Source: a virus
Lineage: Duplodnaviria > Heunggongvirae > Uroviricota > Caudoviricetes
Strand: one strand, 5' to 3'
IMG/VR virus record: IMGVR_UViG_3300028532_000077
Length of the DNA: 13,618 bases
Every line of letters begins with the position of its first letter. Position 1 is the stretch's first letter. Shown here in pieces: positions 1,626 to 13,501 of the stretch. The position numbers and the translations under genes were made by a program. The notes beneath the pieces were generated by a model. The model worked only from the letters and a program-made list of their open reading frames with translations, made no database searches and was not told the origin of the DNA.

Positions 1626-2282
1626 TTATTTCACTTCTCCGTCATACGTCGGAAGGGTGTCTTTAGTGGTGCTGGCTGTTCCTGCATTGGTTGGCACTCG
1701 GCTTTTTACCTGTCCGCCTGTGCTCTTAGGTGATGCGGTCTTTATAGCAATAGCGTTAGTAGTTGCATAACTCACTAATCTTATCTGTTCGAACTGCAAA
1801 TCAAACTGTAAAGCTGATTCTGTTTTATATTCGTAGTCAATGCCTGTCAGAATCATATTATCAAACGTCTTATGCTCTGTGCTTACAATAATAGGCTGTC
1901 TGGCATTCATTATTTCATCAAGATAAGCAATAGCCTGTGAACACCTGTTACCGTTCACCCCTGCACTTGATAGCATATCACCACGTAATGCTAATGGTGT
2001 TTCTGTAATAATGCCTGAAAGCATAAGTTTATTATTCTTGATCCTGACATTATCAGATACATCATTACCATCCTGCACAGGATACGATGTAACATCGGCA
2101 GAACGTGAAACCTTAGTTGCCGGAACAGCGTCAAAAGTAATAGCTTTATAACTGGCTATCGTTGATGCATTTTCGTTATTCAGGTTGCTACATATAATGG
2201 CAAATCCGTTATCAGATTTAACCTTGCTGTTAGATGTATTAATGTTAGATGTGCTGTTGATCTGACTTTCTTTGATAGCCAT
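1626..2282 (-). CDS. Hypothetical protein (218 aa), last gene of the virion-like operon; possible minor structural protein
   Basis: Long ORF with AAGGA Shine-Dalgarno about 10 nt upstream of ATG; lies 73 nt downstream of the 633-aa gene on the same strand; Ser/Thr/Asn-rich sequence with no recognisable catalytic motif. Confidence 0.7.
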   Translation of the reverse strand: MAIKESQINSTSNINTSNSKVKSDNGFAIICSNLNNENASTIASYKAITFDAVPATKVSRSADVTSYPVQDGNDVSDNVRIKNNKLMLSGIITETPLALRGDMLSSAGVNGNRCSQAIAYLDEIMNARQPIIVSTEHKTFDNMILTGIDYEYKTESALQFDLQFEQIRLVSYATTNAIAIKTASPKSTGGQVKSRVPTNAGTASTTKDTLPTYDGEVK

Positions 2283-2355
2283 TTATATTAATCCTTGTGT
2301 AATGAGCGGAAAGCAATAAATATTGCCCCCGCTTTATTATTAGTTATCGTTAAAC

Positions 2356-4257
2356 TTAGTTAACGCTACTCTGTCCTGACAACGTGCTAAGAATCAGATT
2401 CGAACTAAACTGATTGTTGTTCGCTCTGATCTCAGTGCGGATTAAATCCTGAAAGCCGGGACCGTTAGGGATGACGTTAACAGAGATCATATCACTCGGC
2501 ACCGTAACCTGTGCATTCACGTTAACAGGAGTTGCGTATTGACGTTGTAGGCTTACAGTCGGCTGATAGGCTTCTGCTTTACGTGCAACAAGGGTTGATC
2601 CGTAGCTGTTAGCATTGCCATTAATTAAATCAGTCCACCACCCTGGAACGCCGGACTGTGTTTCCTCACCGCGCACAATACGCCCTACATCTTTCGTATC
2701 GAGTCCAGTTGCATAACGAATACCTTCATTGATAATCGTTGATGGCGACCATTCCCCATCTGTAACAGCGTCCATAACCTTTTGTGTCTCAGGTCTGTTA
2801 TCATTCTCACCACGGCTAAGATGTTTATTAATCCAGCTTGTGATTTGATTCCCGTAAGAAGTCATAGAGGTCAGTAATACAGCGCCTTGTTTAGCCAAAT
2901 CCCCGAACGATGCACCAACACCATAAGCTGCATTCTGTAAGGCTTTGCTTTCTTCCGGTTTGAGTGCTGGCATGTTGGCTATGCCATCAAAGAAGCCCAA
3001 AATAGCCTGATTCGATAGTCCATCTGTCAGACGGTCAAAGGCTGTAGCTGTCTTGTTAGCTGCGCGATATTGCTCTTTCTGTGCTTCTGTCAGTAGCTGC
3101 CCGTTGTTTTCCATATCAACCATCGTTTTACGGAACTCTTCCCCATCACGGGAAAACATCTTGAGATAATGGCTGGCATCGTCTGCTAATGGTTCGATCA
3201 GGGATATGATGGCTTCTTTAGTCATTCCTCGGCGTTCACCTTCTCTCACCACGTCTTGCAGGAGTTGCAGCGGTCGCCCCTGGTAGGAAGCTATCTTATC
3301 TTTGTTCCATGCAAAGGCATTCTGAATATCATTTAATGATCCTTCCCCGCCTCGCCACTCTTTTTTCTTACTATCCCATTCAGCAGTTCGGCTTTGATGA
3401 CCAATGCGTTCGTTTAAGTCTTTGATATTGTCAGTGGTCTTGTCCACGCTTGCACTTGATACACCGTTTGCCCTCCCCCAATTAACCATTGCAGCCACCT
3501 GGTTGGAGTCTGCGCCTACCAGATCGCTCATCTTCTGCAATTCCATACGTTCACGGGCTTTTTCCATTCCAGCAGATACAGCCATACTTCCTAAGCCAAC
3601 GGCAGCGCCGCCGATAATGCCACCAACACCGCCCATCATTAACGCGCCACCGCCGCTAACACCTTCTTTGTGGAGCTTCTTAGAAGTAACTGGATATACA
3701 CCCCCAGCGGCAGCATTACGACGCGTAGCAGCGGCTGCGGCTCGTCTTTCTAATGTGATGCGGTCACGGATCAGGGCATTCATCTTCGCTTGCGATATAG
3801 CGCCGGATTCATAGAGGCGGGTTTGTTCCTTAATGTAACGTAGAGCATCGTGATATTTCTTAATATCCATCCCTTCGCCATAGCGGGAATTGTTCTTGAT
3901 GCCTTGTAACTGGCGATATGATGCAAGGCGCTTGATCTCTGCCTTTTCAGCAATTGAGGCTTGTTTAGCCTGTGCTTTAGCGAGGTTTTTAGCTTCCTGT
4001 AGCTTCTGTTTAGTGCTGGCTTTAGATGCCTGTGTCTCAGATTTAACAGCCCGCTTAACATGCTGATCATGCTGGCGCTGAATCTCTTTTCCCAGCCTCT
4101 GTAAATCTTTCTGACGTGCTGCCGCCACTTGCACAGGTTTGATCCCCTGCATCTTCTTTTGTAGCTTATCCACTTCATTCTTAGCTTTCTGTAAGCTCTT
4201 GAAATCAGTGGTAAATGTCACAACATTACTAATTCGTGAGGCGGTAATTTCTAACAT
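2356..4257 (-). CDS. Coiled-coil / glycine-zipper protein (633 aa), tape-measure-like or ejection-protein-like
   Basis: N-terminal ~170 aa are K/Q/A/E-rich heptad-like (LQKAKNEVDKLQKK..., KQKLQEAKNLAKAQAKQ); central hydrophobic Gly-rich segment GGGALMMGGVGGIIGGAAVGLGSMAVSAGM as seen in phage tape-measure and pilot/ejection proteins; no enzymatic motif recognised. Confidence 0.75.
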   Translation of the reverse strand: MLEITASRISNVVTFTTDFKSLQKAKNEVDKLQKKMQGIKPVQVAAARQKDLQRLGKEIQRQHDQHVKRAVKSETQASKASTKQKLQEAKNLAKAQAKQASIAEKAEIKRLASYRQLQGIKNNSRYGEGMDIKKYHDALRYIKEQTRLYESGAISQAKMNALIRDRITLERRAAAAATRRNAAAGGVYPVTSKKLHKEGVSGGGALMMGGVGGIIGGAAVGLGSMAVSAGMEKARERMELQKMSDLVGADSNQVAAMVNWGRANGVSSASVDKTTDNIKDLNERIGHQSRTAEWDSKKKEWRGGEGSLNDIQNAFAWNKDKIASYQGRPLQLLQDVVREGERRGMTKEAIISLIEPLADDASHYLKMFSRDGEEFRKTMVDMENNGQLLTEAQKEQYRAANKTATAFDRLTDGLSNQAILGFFDGIANMPALKPEESKALQNAAYGVGASFGDLAKQGAVLLTSMTSYGNQITSWINKHLSRGENDNRPETQKVMDAVTDGEWSPSTIINEGIRYATGLDTKDVGRIVRGEETQSGVPGWWTDLINGNANSYGSTLVARKAEAYQPTVSLQRQYATPVNVNAQVTVPSDMISVNVIPNGPGFQDLIRTEIRANNNQFSSNLILSTLSGQSSVN

Positions 4258-8378: not shown

Positions 8379-9047
8379 TTAGAATGGTATTGAATCGTAT
8401 ATTTCACTTTTTTCTCTTAGAGATATTATCAGATCGTGAAAAGCCTGTTTCTCAAGATAGATATTCTTTGAATCTAATGCTCGTTTTACAAAATCTTCTG
8501 TTTCTTCGTGCGGTGGTTTCTTCTTATCAAGGGAAAGAAGCCAAGTAAAAATTTCGGGCCGCTCAGGGAACTCTGATTCCTGTGTTTCTTCTTCAATGAT
8601 GATTTCTGAAACATTCAATATTTCATTAGATTCGTCTTCTTTCTCAGAAGGATCAGGTAGTGATGACTCTCCAGGGGGAGTAATATGTGCATCTGTGAAT
8701 GGTAATGCTTTATAGAGTGATGTTTGCCCGTCCCGAGCCTCTACAGAAAGAACTCCCATATCAACAAACATATTTATAATATTGCGAACCTGGCGATCAC
8801 TAACCATTCCAATATTAGATAATGTTTTTTGAGTGGCGTAACATTCTTGCCCTTGTTCATTGAATCCAGCTATATAGCTATAGATTTCAACGGCTGGCAG
8901 TGTAGCGGTGTATTCATTACCTGACGGTGAGAACCACTTTTTAAACATCTTCAACCACTGCTCAACGACTACATATTTTTGTTTACCATCTTTCTGATTT
9001 AGACATTTGGCTTTCGCTTCGGCAATTGTTTTGATATTTTTGATCAT
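8379..9047 (-). CDS. Winged-HTH DNA-binding protein (222 aa), candidate replication initiator or regulator
   Basis: Strong AGGAGG RBS before ATG 9047; segment YATQKTLSNIGMVSDRQVRNIINMFVDMGVLSVEARDGQTSLY has the pattern of a winged helix-turn-helix; acidic C-terminal tail (EDESNEILNVSEIIIEEETQESE). Confidence 0.75.
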   Translation of the reverse strand: MIKNIKTIAEAKAKCLNQKDGKQKYVVVEQWLKMFKKWFSPSGNEYTATLPAVEIYSYIAGFNEQGQECYATQKTLSNIGMVSDRQVRNIINMFVDMGVLSVEARDGQTSLYKALPFTDAHITPPGESSLPDPSEKEDESNEILNVSEIIIEEETQESEFPERPEIFTWLLSLDKKKPPHEETEDFVKRALDSKNIYLEKQAFHDLIISLREKSEIYDSIPF

Positions 9048-9171
9048 TTAGTTCCTCCTTTGTAAGGACTGTAATTAGTAATTCATTAACAAGTTTTGGA
9101 ATTGATTTCCCTTCTGCCTTTGCACGATTTAACAACGCGTTATAAGTTGCAGAATCAAAATTAATATTCAT
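8983..9171 (-). CDS. Ribbon-helix-helix (CopG/Arc-like) DNA-binding protein (62 aa)
   Basis: MNINFDSATYNALLNRAKAEGKSIPKLVNELLITVL fits the beta-strand then two-helix RHH pattern; GGAGAAGGAG RBS; 3' end overlaps the start of the wHTH gene by 65 nt in another frame. Confidence 0.65.
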   Translation of the reverse strand: MNINFDSATYNALLNRAKAEGKSIPKLVNELLITVLTKEELNDQKYQNNCRSESQMSKSERW

Positions 9172-9194
9172 TTGGTTTTCTCCTTCTCCTGTTA

Positions 9195-9371
9195 TTATTC
9201 TTTCTCTGCTTTACGCAGTTCATCAATAATTTTTAGTGCATCGTCAAAACATTTTTCACGCTCTGGATAACCACAGCGTCGCGCTGTGTTCCTATTCATT
9301 CTTACCCTAAAGCGGTTGATCTCACCACGTTTCCAGGCTTCAACTACATCTTGAGAAGTGAAATACTTCAC
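9195..9371 (-). CDS. Small hypothetical protein (58 aa, GTG start), first gene of the regulatory operon; not in the supplied ORF track
   Basis: GTG at 9371..9369 preceded by a perfect AGGAGG at about 8 nt; in-frame to TAA at 9197..9195; basic protein (…RFRVRMNRNTARRCGYPERE…). Confidence 0.5.
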   Translation of the reverse strand: MKYFTSQDVVEAWKRGEINRFRVRMNRNTARRCGYPEREKCFDDALKIIDELRKAEKE

Positions 9372-9494
9372 TAATTAACCTCCTATTCTATTTGGTTAAA
9401 AGAAAAAGACACCTTGCAAGCCTCTTGGGCTTCAAAGTGCGGTGCATTGGTTTAATTATTTAGAGGATAGGAATGTTTTCCTGCCCCTAATATT

Positions 9495-9523
9495 ACTTTA
9501 CCATAACTAAAGGCTTTTGTCAA
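9495..9523 (-). promoter_or_regulatory. Candidate sigma70 promoter for the leftward regulatory operon
   Basis: On the minus strand: TTGACA (9523..9518), 17-bp spacer, TAAAGT (9500..9495); about 120 nt upstream of the GTG at 9371. Confidence 0.4.
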
Positions 9524-9787
9524 CCCCCACCCATAAAATATTGATCATTTTTCAGTATGTTATGATTTTGCTTAGCAATTCGTGCTCTTCTGTGTGATGC
9601 TATTCTTCCTTATTCTCTAAAACGCGTTCTAACGAGGTTTTGATAAAAACAATACATTCCCTTATGTAATGACAGTTTAGCTCGCCTACGGCTTGATTTA
9701 AGCGGTAGAAACTTATTTAACCTTCAACTACTAAAACCATTCTTTTTTGTTTGTTGTTGGTTGTTGTCTGTGTCTATGTGCTAACAT

Positions 9788-10060
9788 CGCTAACGCGTAG
9801 CACACAAGGTTATTGCACTCGTCAGAGTATTGCACAATAGATTTTCTCTTAAATAGATTGATGATCGTTAGATTGGCGTAAGCCTCATCAATGGAACTAT
9901 TGAAGCGCACAGCGCATAGACACTAACAACCATTCGCTTACGCTCAGGTTATTGCACAAGTAAATTTCAATCGTTAGATGGTAGTTAGTTAATTATCGTT
10001 CTGCGCACAGCGCAAGACTATTTAGCCTTACGCAAGCCGTAGGCTATTTGCACATAGTAG
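9788..10060. repeat. Modular imperfect tandem duplication (about 100-bp period) with recurring short motifs
   Basis: TCGTTAGAT at 9865 and 9971; GCGCACAGCGCA at 9905 and 10003; GGTTATTGCAC at 9808 and 9947 with variants at 9827 and 10043; GCTAACGC at 9788. Confidence 0.6.
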
Positions 10061-10200
10061 ATTACATATTCGTTGTGAGCGGCATTAGCGAACATAGATC
10101 TACTAACTAACATCAACAAACAAAAACTATGTGTTATGACAAGCAGTCTAACGACTAACACTCTAACTTGTGCAAGGTTCTGGCGAATGCCAATAGATTA

Positions 10201-10235
10201 AGGGATAGTCGTTAGACTCCCTAACGGGTATCCCT
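10201..10235. repeat. Nested perfect inverted repeat (stem-loop)
   Basis: AGGGATA gt CGTTAG actcc CTAACG gg TATCCCT: outer 7-bp and inner 6-bp perfect stems; followed by about 60 bp of AT-rich DNA (10236-10295). Confidence 0.6.
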
Positions 10236-10295
10236 ATAATTATTCTTATAAAGATAAAAAAGAATTATATTATATAGTTTAATTGTAGTATTGTC

Positions 10296-10394
10296 GGAAA
10301 TCATTTCCTAGGTGATAGGAACTCATTTCCTAGGTAGGTAGGAAACCACTTCCACGGTTATTTCCTAAATAGATCGGAACTCATTTCCCAGGTG
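10296..10394. repeat. Iteron-like array: four 19-bp direct repeats, each with internal dyad symmetry
   Basis: GGAAATCATTTCCTAGGTG (10296), GGAACTCATTTCCTAGGTA (10318), GGAAACCACTTCCACGGTT (10341), GGAACTCATTTCCCAGGTG (10376); spacing 22, 23 and 35 bp; each copy contains GGAA-N5-TTCC. Confidence 0.7.
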
Positions 10395-10860
10395 TTATTT
10401 ATACTTATCGGGTATCAGACTTGATAGGGGTAGCTCACAGTGACCTACCGTTACATCCAATCATCACATAACATCTGTGCAATGATCTTCTAAAAGTGTT
10501 TCTTGCTACCAAAATTAAACATCTAAAACAGGCTTAAATTCAATGTAATTGATGATTAATCCCTGTGTAATTCCTACGTAAAAATCCAATGAAAAGTAGC
10601 TTAAAAAGTGCAATGTTAGCTTTCTTCACTTTTGCGTCATCATCAGCAAAGCCTTATGTTATGCGGCATATAGCGCATCACTGCAAAATTGTTGCTCAAT
10701 AAACGTTCTATCATTTGTCGAACAAGTTCTTTCACGTGTTGAAAATTTATGTTTAAATTTGCTTTCAATCTTTAATGTGCAATCACTATCAACATAAAAA
10801 TAAAAAACCTTCTATTATATTTCATAGCATACAAAAGTCAATAGAAGCCCTCTCGTGCTC

Positions 10861-11244
10861 CTACGTAAAAAATCCACCACTTTTCCCCTTATACATCAAC
10901 TCAAGGCGTTCTATGTGTTCCTTAGTGCATATTACGATTATTATGTTAAATGGATTTTGGACTATATTTTGACCTGCACCCGCATAAACACTGGTTTCAT
11001 CGCTTACAGCCCTTGTGAGACGTGGTGCTGTTTCTAGCATCTGATCCGACATAAAACCGATCATTCTCGTGTTTAGTGAAAGTTTAGTGAGATACATTAC
11101 AGAAAGGCTTTCTGTGTAATGATTTAATAGGTAAAAACGATGTTGATTACGCAAGAAAATTCCTTGCTGATATTTGGGGATTCTGGATTTTCCAGATCGG
11201 GGGGCGGTGAAAATCGCGTTAAGCACTTCTCGCAATCTAGCCAT
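10861..11244 (-). CDS. Questionable ORF (127 aa)
   Basis: Open frame only; no purine-rich RBS before the ATG (CCCTTCCC context); translation has no recognisable features. Listed because nothing else occupies this interval. Confidence 0.2.
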   Translation of the reverse strand: MARLREVLNAIFTAPRSGKSRIPKYQQGIFLRNQHRFYLLNHYTESLSVMYLTKLSLNTRMIGFMSDQMLETAPRLTRAVSDETSVYAGAGQNIVQNPFNIIIVICTKEHIERLELMYKGKSGGFFT

Positions 11245-11549: not shown

Positions 11550-12101
11550 TTATTTTTGATTGAGCTTACATCGATCCCATTGTTCTGTCGTTCTTGTGAT
11601 ACGATCGCTTATTGCAAAATTTAATAGCCAAGAATCATAAGCATAAACCTTGCTTTTATCATCTGCCATCATAAACTTGCCGTTAGCATTCAGTTTTGGC
11701 GATATCAAATATGTTCCATTTAATCTGTTAGCCTTGAAGCTATCTGCATATAAAGTTACTTGTGCGTATCCCTGAACACGTAATGCCCCTAAACGTCCGT
11801 TTTCGATTGATGCAATAGAGTATTGGCAAAGATAATTTTTGGCAGCAGGAGTCGTTTTCACTCCTTCAGTTTTTCGTGAATTATTTGATTGCGAGCTTCG
11901 AATAGAGGATGAAGGATAAGAGTATGAATGATTTTTATAAGATGAAGGGGCATAAGAGCCAATCCGGCACGTCTTACCAACAGCTATACACGAGTTACCA
12001 CAAGGTATTCCTTTTTTGCAGTTTTTAGCAACTGCGGTAGAAGTTCCCCCTACAAACAACGTTGTAAAAATCATCATCCTCACAAATGCAGACCTGCGCA
12101 T
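11550..12101 (-). CDS. Secreted Cys-motif protein of unknown function (183 aa)
   Basis: Strong GGGAGG RBS 5 nt before ATG; N-terminal signal peptide (MRRSAFVRMMIFTTLFVGGTSTAVA, Ala-x-Ala cleavage context); mature N-terminus C-KKGIP-C-GNS-C-IAVGKT-C has four spaced cysteines; then a Ser/Tyr-rich linker. Confidence 0.8.
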   Translation of the reverse strand: MRRSAFVRMMIFTTLFVGGTSTAVAKNCKKGIPCGNSCIAVGKTCRIGSYAPSSYKNHSYSYPSSSIRSSQSNNSRKTEGVKTTPAAKNYLCQYSIASIENGRLGALRVQGYAQVTLYADSFKANRLNGTYLISPKLNANGKFMMADDKSKVYAYDSWLLNFAISDRITRTTEQWDRCKLNQK

Positions 12102-12873: not shown

Positions 12874-13481
12874 CGTGTGCCTCTGTATTCATATGAAAAT
12901 TAACAAGTTACATACTACACAGGGAGACTACGCATAAAACACAATACAAGTAAAGATACATTTTCAAGACAATAGGAGCCATAAAGCGCCTTTGATGGGC
13001 TACCCCAAAAAATAAGCGCCGTAGGCGTATCCACTAAAAAGGGCTTTTTCACAAAAGCTATGAAGTCTTAGCAGTTCTTCTCTTATCAGGCACCCGTTGT
13101 ACTCCGGTGGACGAAACCGTGCTAGAGCTTGATTCTTTCCCGATCAAGTTAGGTTTTGAAGAGGTGGGCTTTAATCCACTATGCACTTAAAACTACTCTT
13201 CCCATCATTTAGCCTGTTTATCCTCTGCAACGTCATCTCGACGTGTAGCATCATTGGACACCGCGCCAGGTGTGGAACATCTTGCTAAGAGTTTTGGTAG
13301 AAGGTTTAGAGACGGTGGCACGTCTTCCAGCTTCAAAGGAACTTGTTACGAGGTTGAGCCTGGGAACTACTCGCCCATACGTGTTACACTACCAAAGCCC
13401 ATAACAACGTATAGGCGTTTGTAAGTGATAACAGAAGATACAATTTCTTAGAGAAGCTAAGCTAAGTTATTGATTTTCTTG

Positions 13482-13501
13482 ATGGTGCCGATAATAGGAG
13501 T
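13482..13501. repeat. attR-type direct repeat overlapping the tRNA-Thr 3' end
   Basis: Identical to 112-131. Confidence 0.8.

Follow-up and report, generated by a model that had tools for sequence, protein, structure and literature searches.

The repeated motifs found at positions 9788-10060 of the analysed stretch of DNA (13,618 nucleotides, referred to here as the window) appear to form the core of a cis-acting block of about 500 bp (~9744-10241) that lies against the unwinding stretch and the Rep-cognate iterons of a replication origin. Our tentative interpretation is that this block is an origin-proximal accessory or control module, acting in cis and putatively bound by protein. It would consist of about three diverged tandem units of ~100 bp and one inverted partial unit. 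The block is built of repeats, lies beside the origin, is independent of Rep, always retains at least one full unit, and is matched by an analogous block in a second lineage; taken alone, it is a solid cis element. Protein binding, and any effect on replication, we infer.

The repeat structure far exceeds what would be expected by chance. ATCGTTAGAT is found at 9864 and 9970, and GCGCACAGCGCA at 9905 and 10003. AGGTTATTGCAC occurs at 9807 and 9946, AGAGTATTGCAC at 9824 and ATTTGCACA at 10046, and TTACGC is present at 9938 and 10028, with a reversed copy at 9876. TCGTTAGA recurs at 10209 within a hairpin and, reversed, at 10147 and 9628; all five of its copies in the 13.6-kb window lie within 9628-10216, where ~0.4 would be expected if they were evenly spread. 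Three exact 10-12-mers (TATTGCACAA, ATCGTTAGAT and GCGCACAGCGCA) are colinear between the two units, at spacings of 122, 106 and 98 nt. Exact k-mer pairs separated by 80-130 nt number 11 (k=8), 8 (k=9) and 5 (k=10), against shuffle means of 0.23, 0.05 and 0.015, respectively; these counts were reached in none of 2000 dinucleotide shuffles, and none of the other 273-nt tiles of the window came near the pair count of 9788-10060. The words ATTRCAC, CGTTAG and GCGCA are each four- to twelve-fold concentrated in 9600-10800. A global alignment of unit 1 (9829-9950) with unit 2 (9951-10046) gave z = 6.0. The best local alignment of the units covers the 17-nt GCGCACAGCGCA stretch only, the units being poorly alike outside the motifs, and the motif spacing differs between them (36/20, 40/32, 32/24 and 14/20 nt). 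As far as the sequence tells, the duplication is old and rich in indels, not clean.

These results bear on several claims of the preliminary description. Its two units sharing the same ordered motifs were found as described, with every motif in its place. The tandem duplication of ~100 bp stands in so far as the repeats are beyond chance, and it has to be qualified, as the units are diverged and unequally spaced and their local alignment is limited to 17 nt. The copy of TCGTTAGA inside the hairpin at 10209 is confirmed; the reversed copy placed at 10146 in fact starts at 10147. Finally, the view that this is not random intergenic DNA holds, with no plausible ORF, no RefSeq annotation and the repeats just described.

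Read from left to right, the block begins with a T/G-rich boundary arm (9744..9782, plus strand), complementary to 9911-9930 and 10105-10126. It is followed by a pair of ATTGCAC sites (AGGTTATTGCAC and AGAGTATTGCAC, 17 nt apart; 9807..9835, plus strand), which make up the left arm of an inverted repeat (~30 bp) whose partner is 10166-10195; in alleles that we call type b, 34 nt of this region repeat 10167-10200 in inverted orientation (88% identity). Repeat unit 1 (122 nt; 9829..9950, plus strand) contains ATTGCACAA, ATCGTTAGAT, GCGTAA (the reversed site at 9876), GCGCACAGCGCA and TTACGC. Unit 2 (96 nt; 9951..10046, plus strand) contains ATTGCACAA, ATCGTTAGAT, GCGCACAGCGCA and TTACGC, the last in a small hairpin at 10028. 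A degenerate third unit (TTTGCACA ... TTCGTTGTGAGCGG; 10047..10146, plus strand; alignment z = 3.6) shows the same distance from TGTGAGCGG to GCGCACAGCGCA as the block of the second lineage described below, and an A/C-rich right boundary arm occupies 10102..10126 (plus strand). An inverted partial unit, TCTAACGA-N11-ACTTGTGCAA, lies on the minus strand at 10147..10175 and, together with the right arm of the ~30-bp inverted repeat, extends over 10147..10195. The block closes with a hairpin (10196..10241, plus strand; z = -4.1) with an outer stem AGGGATA..TATCCCT and an inner stem CGTTAG-N5-CTAACG. This hairpin overlaps a promoter-like TAGACT-16-TATAAT reading into the origin, and its inner stem is not conserved, TCGTTAGACT being replaced in many relatives by TCAAGGACTC or TCGAAGACT.

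The window is an integrative island of ~13.4 kb at the tRNA-Thr gene (thrW) of E. coli. It is bounded by 20-bp att direct repeats (ATGGTGCCGATAATAGGAGT at 112-131 and 13482-13501), the second of which is the 3' end of tRNA-Thr(CGT), and it encodes a tyrosine integrase (187-1551). In an E. coli chromosome of 98% identity, the island sits between paoD and thrW-proA, and over the block region E. coli ATCC 43886 has exactly the same sequence (100% identity). Exact matches to the IHF consensus number three in the window, and two of them are adjacent to the att repeats (96-108 and, on the minus strand, 13463-13475), as expected for attL and attR. The leftward gene order is Dit-like, tape-measure-like and weak capsid-like genes, small ORFs, and then the replication operon. 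Part of the queried region 9400-10800 is present in 560 of 5426 complete E. coli genomes, and in 352 of the 560 the block is of the window's type (W-type); from searches of further species, hardly any members of the family lie outside Escherichia. Some genomes hold up to five copies of the region, and a 166-kb IncF plasmid carries one complete copy of the island. No DNA similarity to phages or plasmids was found besides copies of the island itself, and no account of the family came up when the literature was searched by topic, motif sequence and protein accession. The island is an uncharacterised E. coli integrative element that looks like a phage satellite.

Coding is absent from 9372 to ~11550, and 9788-10060 falls inside this ~2.2-kb gap, which is without annotation in RefSeq relatives; in the block itself only spurious ORFs were found. 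To the right of the gap the window has a 183-aa ORF (11550-12101, minus strand) with a signal-peptide-like N-terminus. It is unrelated to the 183-aa serine recombinase that adjoins the gap in many relatives (L002:3147-3698, L004, L005 and L007); the window has no recombinase. Some copies have IS3-family insertions within the non-coding gap or adjacent to it (L001:13056-14284; L065:5729-6942). At 9675-9705 the window has lost a segment of ~145-175 nt which is present in most relatives (L001:10271-10460), is flanked by repeated GTTTAGCTCGCC, and holds a terminator-like hairpin on the minus strand. The same replication module is carried by a 7.7-kb mini-island (L064; NZ_CP119011.1 3524000-3532100) consisting of int, an HNH endonuclease, an HTH protein, a serine recombinase, a 1.85-kb gap, the 58-aa gene, the ribbon-helix-helix-like gene and Rep; its insertion site is the thiM TPP riboswitch, duplicated at both ends.

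The block abuts the origin. A 59-bp A+T-rich stretch (10235..10293), a candidate DNA-unwinding element, occupies the same position in all lineages, and next to it are four 22-23-bp iterons (GGAAnTCATTTCCTAGGTnn; 10294..10397, plus strand) cognate to Rep N-domain type 1. Orphan single copies of iteron types 5 and 4 (GGGTATCAGACTTGATAGGGGTAG and CTCACAGTGACCTACC; 10411..10451, plus strand) come after them, and may be traces of past cassette exchange or of cross-talk between co-resident islands. The replication operon (8379..9371, minus strand) starts with a gene for a 58-aa three-helix protein (9195-9371), followed by a ribbon-helix-helix-like ORF (8983-9171), recognised by sequence pattern only and without a family match, and by Rep (8379-9047), a protein of 222 aa with an HTH_36 N-domain and the C-terminus ...IYDSIPF; all three are on the minus strand. 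Upstream, the leader (9372-9705), conserved in nearly all related loci, holds the promoter-like element of the operon, TTGACA-17-TAAAGT (with TG; 9495..9523, minus strand).

The N-terminal domain of Rep is of winged-helix type and falls into five classes. A tandem-repeat scan of ~55 loci paired four of the five classes each with its own tandem iteron consensus: GGAAnTCATTTCC... for type 1, TAACAGnnTTCTGTnGGGGTG for type 2, TAGTTCACAGTGACCTACCCCC for type 4 and GGGTATCAGACTTGATAGGGGTAG for type 5. For type 3 the scan was empty, and TGTAAC-N4/5-TCGTTAC repeats were seen by eye at the iteron position in five loci. The locus thus combines iterons, an adjacent A+T-rich stretch and a cognate Rep gene nearby, as is typical of iteron-type origins. 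Since the iterons co-vary with the Rep N-terminal domain, the locus can be taken as the replication origin, and this assignment, made by sequence comparison, is solid. Rep N-class and iterons are shuffled as cassettes between island backbones. The Rep C-termini read ...EIYDSIPF, ...TIYDSLPF or ...NIYDDFDIPF (window 8379-8402; L007:352-378), and a comparison of Rep with PDB sequences gave no match. The C-terminal tail of E. coli SSB (...DFDDDIPF) is a docking site for PriA, primase, the chi subunit and further partners; by analogy, the Rep C-terminus may be a replisome-recruiting mimic of this tail.

How the block varies among relatives was assessed in loci gathered with the conserved 58-aa gene as an anchor (7 from RefSeq, 2 species-representative and 54 from metagenomes). 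The W-type set comprises 35 loci with 28 distinct sequences. Two units are present in 13 of the 35, one unit in 16, and the remaining 6 have an internal deletion of ~115 nt (9804-9918) that leaves unit 2 intact. The single-unit loci have their junctions at ATCGTTAGAT (7), GCGCACAGCGCA (7) or TTGCACA (2), that is, at each of three shared motifs, which points to recurrent unequal exchange between the units. All the same, each word is kept in at least one copy and in unchanged order in 35/35 loci, and at least one full unit is always retained. The preliminary description had suggested comparing related elements for motif conservation, and this conservation is what the comparison found in every variant. 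In type-b alleles the left part (9714-9860) is ~45% diverged, with ATTGCA persisting at both sites and the hairpin TGTGCTA/TAGCACA replaced by GCGTTA/TAACGC; in type-c alleles TCTAACGA (10147) is deleted and TTACGC is altered. The copy of TCGTTAGA at 10209 is dispensable in relatives.

A second lineage (L007 and others, ~20 loci including the 7.7-kb thiM mini-island) has, at the same position, a block that is nearly unalignable with that of the window. This alternative block is also made of tandem modules (~105 nt), and their copy number is polymorphic too. It contains a single GCGCACAGCGCA, after which come a hairpin, ATTACAC and TGTGAGCGG, spaced as in the window; GCGCACAGCGCA, then ATT(G/A)CAC and TGTGAGCGG, at equal distance, is the sole motif common to the two blocks. 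In this lineage the ATTRCAC sites point one way to the left of the iterons and the opposite way to the right of them. By comparison of the two sequences, the second-lineage block has the same design as that of the window. Wherever a locus extends far enough, one block or the other separates the leader from the A+T-rich stretch, the exception being L019, which aligns over 9372-9404 only, and the orientation of the block is identical in all ~55 loci.

The type of block does not follow the specificity of Rep. Rep N-domains of types 1, 2, 3 and 4 all accompany the W-type block, and, conversely, type-1 Rep with type-1 iterons is also found with the alternative block (L017, L030 and L061). Block type tracks only the backbone lineage, as given by the Rep C-domain type, and this linkage carries no statistical weight because it reflects two or three independent events only. 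We could therefore reject the idea that the block is an iteron or copy-control array of Rep: its units measure ~100 nt, and it stays with N-types 1-4 while the true iterons change.

If the block is an origin accessory, as we tentatively propose, then ATTGCACAA, ATCGTTAGAT, GCGCACAGCGCA and TTACGC would be recognised by a protein, or several proteins, distinct from the Rep N-domain. The binder might be a host factor, a factor of a helper phage, or the conserved 58-aa protein encoded first in the operon, and the array would help or control origin opening or replisome loading from the unwinding-element side of the origin. Some candidate binders could be assessed. A cluster of DnaA boxes was ruled out: no exact TTWTNCACA is present in 9600-10800, and near-boxes with one mismatch are not enriched (32 in the window, where 39 would be expected); three of the 32 are ATTGCACA or TTTGCACA sites. 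No IHF consensus was found within the block. The ribbon-helix-helix-like protein was rejected as the binder, its type following the Rep N-type and not the block type. The 58-aa protein is confidently predicted to form a bundle of three helices (pLDDT 87); comparison of folds gave no informative match and none to a recognisable DNA-binding fold, and searches of Pfam, NCBIfam and PDB sequences gave no match to it.

The preliminary description had read the region as a scaffold for multi-site protein binding. A conserved module with ordered motifs is in line with that proposal. On the other hand, there is no DnaA or IHF signal, and the motifs are spaced and oriented differently from unit to unit and from lineage to lineage, an argument against a rigid multi-protein scaffold. 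Of the particular functions then suggested, an enhancer-like accessory of the origin best fits the position of the block. What speaks against the accessory reading is that one or two units are both tolerated, that several motif copies are dispensable, and that IS elements have inserted in the gap.

The same observations raise the question whether the block has any sequence-specific function. It might be spacer or relic DNA, whose repeats persist by duplication, slippage and lineage linkage. Its variable copy number and the deletion or replacement of its parts in relatives fit this idea, as do the IS insertions; moreover, in the W-type copies the spacers are as invariant as the motifs, so that there is no signal of differential conservation. 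Still, a functionless block would hardly be expected always beside the origin, nor would it be expected to make up about a quarter of a ~2-kb gap which itself amounts to about a quarter of the smallest, 7.7-kb island. Two nearly unalignable lineages sharing a design and the GCGCACAGCGCA ... ATTRCAC ... TGTGAGCGG core, and the survival of the ATTGCA sites in the diverged allele, also speak against it. We thus consider absence of function unlikely.

A different function was suggested by the genes of the island. Its Dit-like protein is 60-63% identical, and its tape-measure-like protein 32-34% identical, to the products of two adjacent tail genes of Phapecoctavirus, and the homologues (window 1626-4257, minus strand) are in the same order as in the phage; the capsid-like gene has no phage match. 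Phapecoctavirus phages, such as nepoznato and phAPEC8, are virulent myoviruses of ~150 kb. The similarity of the tail genes suggests that the island is a satellite of these phages, or a defence interfering with their tails. No ORF resembling a terminase or portal gene was recognised among the window ORFs of at least 55 aa, ~12 of which were scanned against family libraries, so that a satellite would need a borrowed packaging signal. Hence it is conceivable that the block is, or is part of, a site for a Phapecoctavirus-type terminase or another helper factor, in agreement with the packaging or recognition site mentioned in the preliminary description.

The gap does hold sequence shared with the phage terminus. 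An element of ~85 nt (11143..11230, plus strand) is homologous to the inner boundary of the Phapecoctavirus terminal repeat; it is a candidate signal for packaging or cleavage by the helper. The window copy is 67% identical to nepoznato and keeps ATCGCGTT|AAGCACTTCT (11206-11226) across the repeat junction; a second allele (L025 and similar loci) is 82% identical and matched 65 phage records (E = 6e-14). The phage sequence matched does not code for protein. The WPEC4 record begins and ends with the same 328 nt, a terminal repeat known from database records, not from reads, and the island element straddles its inner end; the boundary words are CGCGTT|AAGCAC and ATGTTG|AGCACC. The element is present in ~38 of 53 related loci, in two alleles and with both block types (elsewhere at L069:240-400 and L067:13860-13975). 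The terminus region of nepoznato (63.6-65.3 kb; L067:13600-15300) is a non-coding region of 1.7 kb with three tandem units of 58-77 bp, each composed of GTGCTCAACAT, a variable hairpin and CGCCCCC, followed by long T/G-rich runs; the first of these units coincides with the end of the WPEC4 record.

The block itself resembles this terminus in a few respects. Both have T/G-rich runs and tandem units combining a conserved word with a variable hairpin, and in the type-c allele the T/G-rich arm and the runs next to the phage terminus agree by 85% over 41 nt (z = 6.9). In addition, GTTAGCAC, which is similar to the cut-site word ATGTTG|AGCAC, is found on the minus strand at 9778, just left of 9788-10060. 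However, the arm similarity, to which any homology is limited, is one of low-complexity sequence; words of the GTTAGCAC type number two in the window, with ~0.6 expected by chance, and the copy at 9778 is missing from types b and c. The block words are not clustered in nepoznato, where GCGCACAGCGCA is absent, and a blastn search of the block against 50,697 phage records returned noise only. By sequence, 11143-11230, a genuine phage-homologous element ~1 kb away that occurs with both block types, is a better candidate than the block for a borrowed packaging or cleavage signal, and this lowers the likelihood of packaging for the block. The arm, the single 8-mer and the tandem units with word and hairpin remain as points of resemblance, and a role of the block in helper recognition or packaging seems improbable to us.

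The block might also act as folded nucleic acid, in the form of a transcript with secondary structure or of hairpins that unwound DNA extrudes; it could, for example, signal priming or primosome assembly, or give rise to an origin-activating transcript. The block (9735-10250) has fold z scores of -5.6 (plus strand) and -5.25 (minus strand), and the unrelated alternative block of L007 has -8.96 and -6.3, respectively, against -0.7 for the control leader (9372-9735). Strong self-complementarity is evident in the block, with long-range pairing between the left boundary arm and its two complementary segments and between the second unit and the inverted unit. Homologous hairpins differ in sequence, both in the type-b replacement mentioned above and in AGCCTTAC/GTAGGCT versus CTTCGTGGGCG/CGCCAACGAAG between alleles or lineages; GCGCACAGCGCA itself can form a stem of 4-5 bp with a triloop, and the ends of Rep, ...IYDSIPF or ...YDDFDIPF, resemble the SSB tail.

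On the other hand, 200-nt windows over 9700-9999 gave fold z scores near 0, with no local structure, so the signal stems from long-range inverted repeats. In type a the arm-to-arm duplex that closes the structure reaches z = -3 to -4; it is weaker in the b and c alleles and in the alternative blocks, and the broken inner stem of the hairpin at 10196-10241 in many relatives is likewise unfavourable. Both strands of the window block fold about equally, and in L007 the difference between strands is mostly compositional (shuffle means differ by 13 of 24 kcal/mol). Among 128 predicted pairs of the alternative block there are no compensatory double changes; one-sided changes keep the pair in four cases and break it in two. 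Covariation is of no use here because sequences are 92-98% identical within each block type. There is no convincing sigma-70 promoter upstream on the plus strand, and a described RNA family was rejected for both blocks, as Rfam 15 covariance models gave only tRNA and sub-threshold noise. Given these weaknesses of the structural evidence, we keep folded RNA or DNA as a rival and not as the leading explanation, and regard it as quite unlikely. Most doubtful of all is a combined proposal in which both blocks would be a self-folding module for origin activation or helper sensing, made of extruded DNA or RNA, that recruits the host or helper replisome independently of the Rep/iteron cassette, with the island representing an undescribed family of E. 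coli satellites of Phapecoctavirus.

Several other identities can be set aside more briefly. The partition-like centromere of the preliminary description is unlikely: the island is integrated between att repeats, and no match to a Par family was found among the ~12 ORFs scanned (Pfam, PHROGs and NCBIfam). An invertible DNA switch was rejected; the units are flanked by inverted repeats, but they are never inverted in ~55 loci and the window lacks a recombinase. A res or multimer-resolution site was rejected as well, since in islands with the recombinase gene the block is 1-1.5 kb away from it, and since islands lacking the gene (the window, L001 and L003) have the block as well.

Among known systems, the block, as a putative origin accessory, seems closest in kind to the crr region of phage P4 and the par locus of plasmid pSC101. 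P4 crr is a non-coding cis element that works together with ori, from which it is kilobases away; its direct repeats of ~100-120 bp contain short recognition words, and they carry the same octamer iterons of the alpha initiator as ori. The likeness consists in a satellite replicon having direct repeats of ~100 bp with several words and a separate iteron origin. Unlike crr, the block contains no Rep-cognate iterons, does not co-vary with the DNA-binding domain of Rep, and abuts the origin. We thus rejected a crr-like region proper: direct repeats of ~100 bp are present, yet with no GGAAnTCATTTCC iterons in them, and the block thereby lacks the initiator iterons that define crr. The pSC101 par locus is a protein-free cis locus of ~370 bp beside an iteron origin, with a gyrase site affecting plasmid stability; it is composed of direct and inverted repeats able to form hairpins, and its partial deletions are tolerated, with graded effects. 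The block would share with it the absence of protein coding, the place by an iteron origin, the direct and inverted repeats and the hairpin potential. It differs in showing no sequence similarity and in sitting in an integrated island.

The exchange of Rep/iteron cassettes between otherwise similar elements has its own parallel in PLE of Vibrio cholerae, a satellite of a virulent myovirus, whose origin iterons lie in a large non-coding region and whose RepA has a swappable N-terminal DNA-binding domain, exchanged with the iterons as matched cassettes. The proteins and the hosts are different, and we know of no counterpart in PLE of the array of ~100-bp units beside the origin.

If the block is a working accessory of the origin, it would represent a second layer of cis control, independent of Rep, in a widespread family of islands. 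This family appears to be tied to virulent coliphages of ~150 kb, which are candidates for therapy. The binding partner of the block would then tell us how origin firing works in these islands and, possibly, how the phage is sensed.
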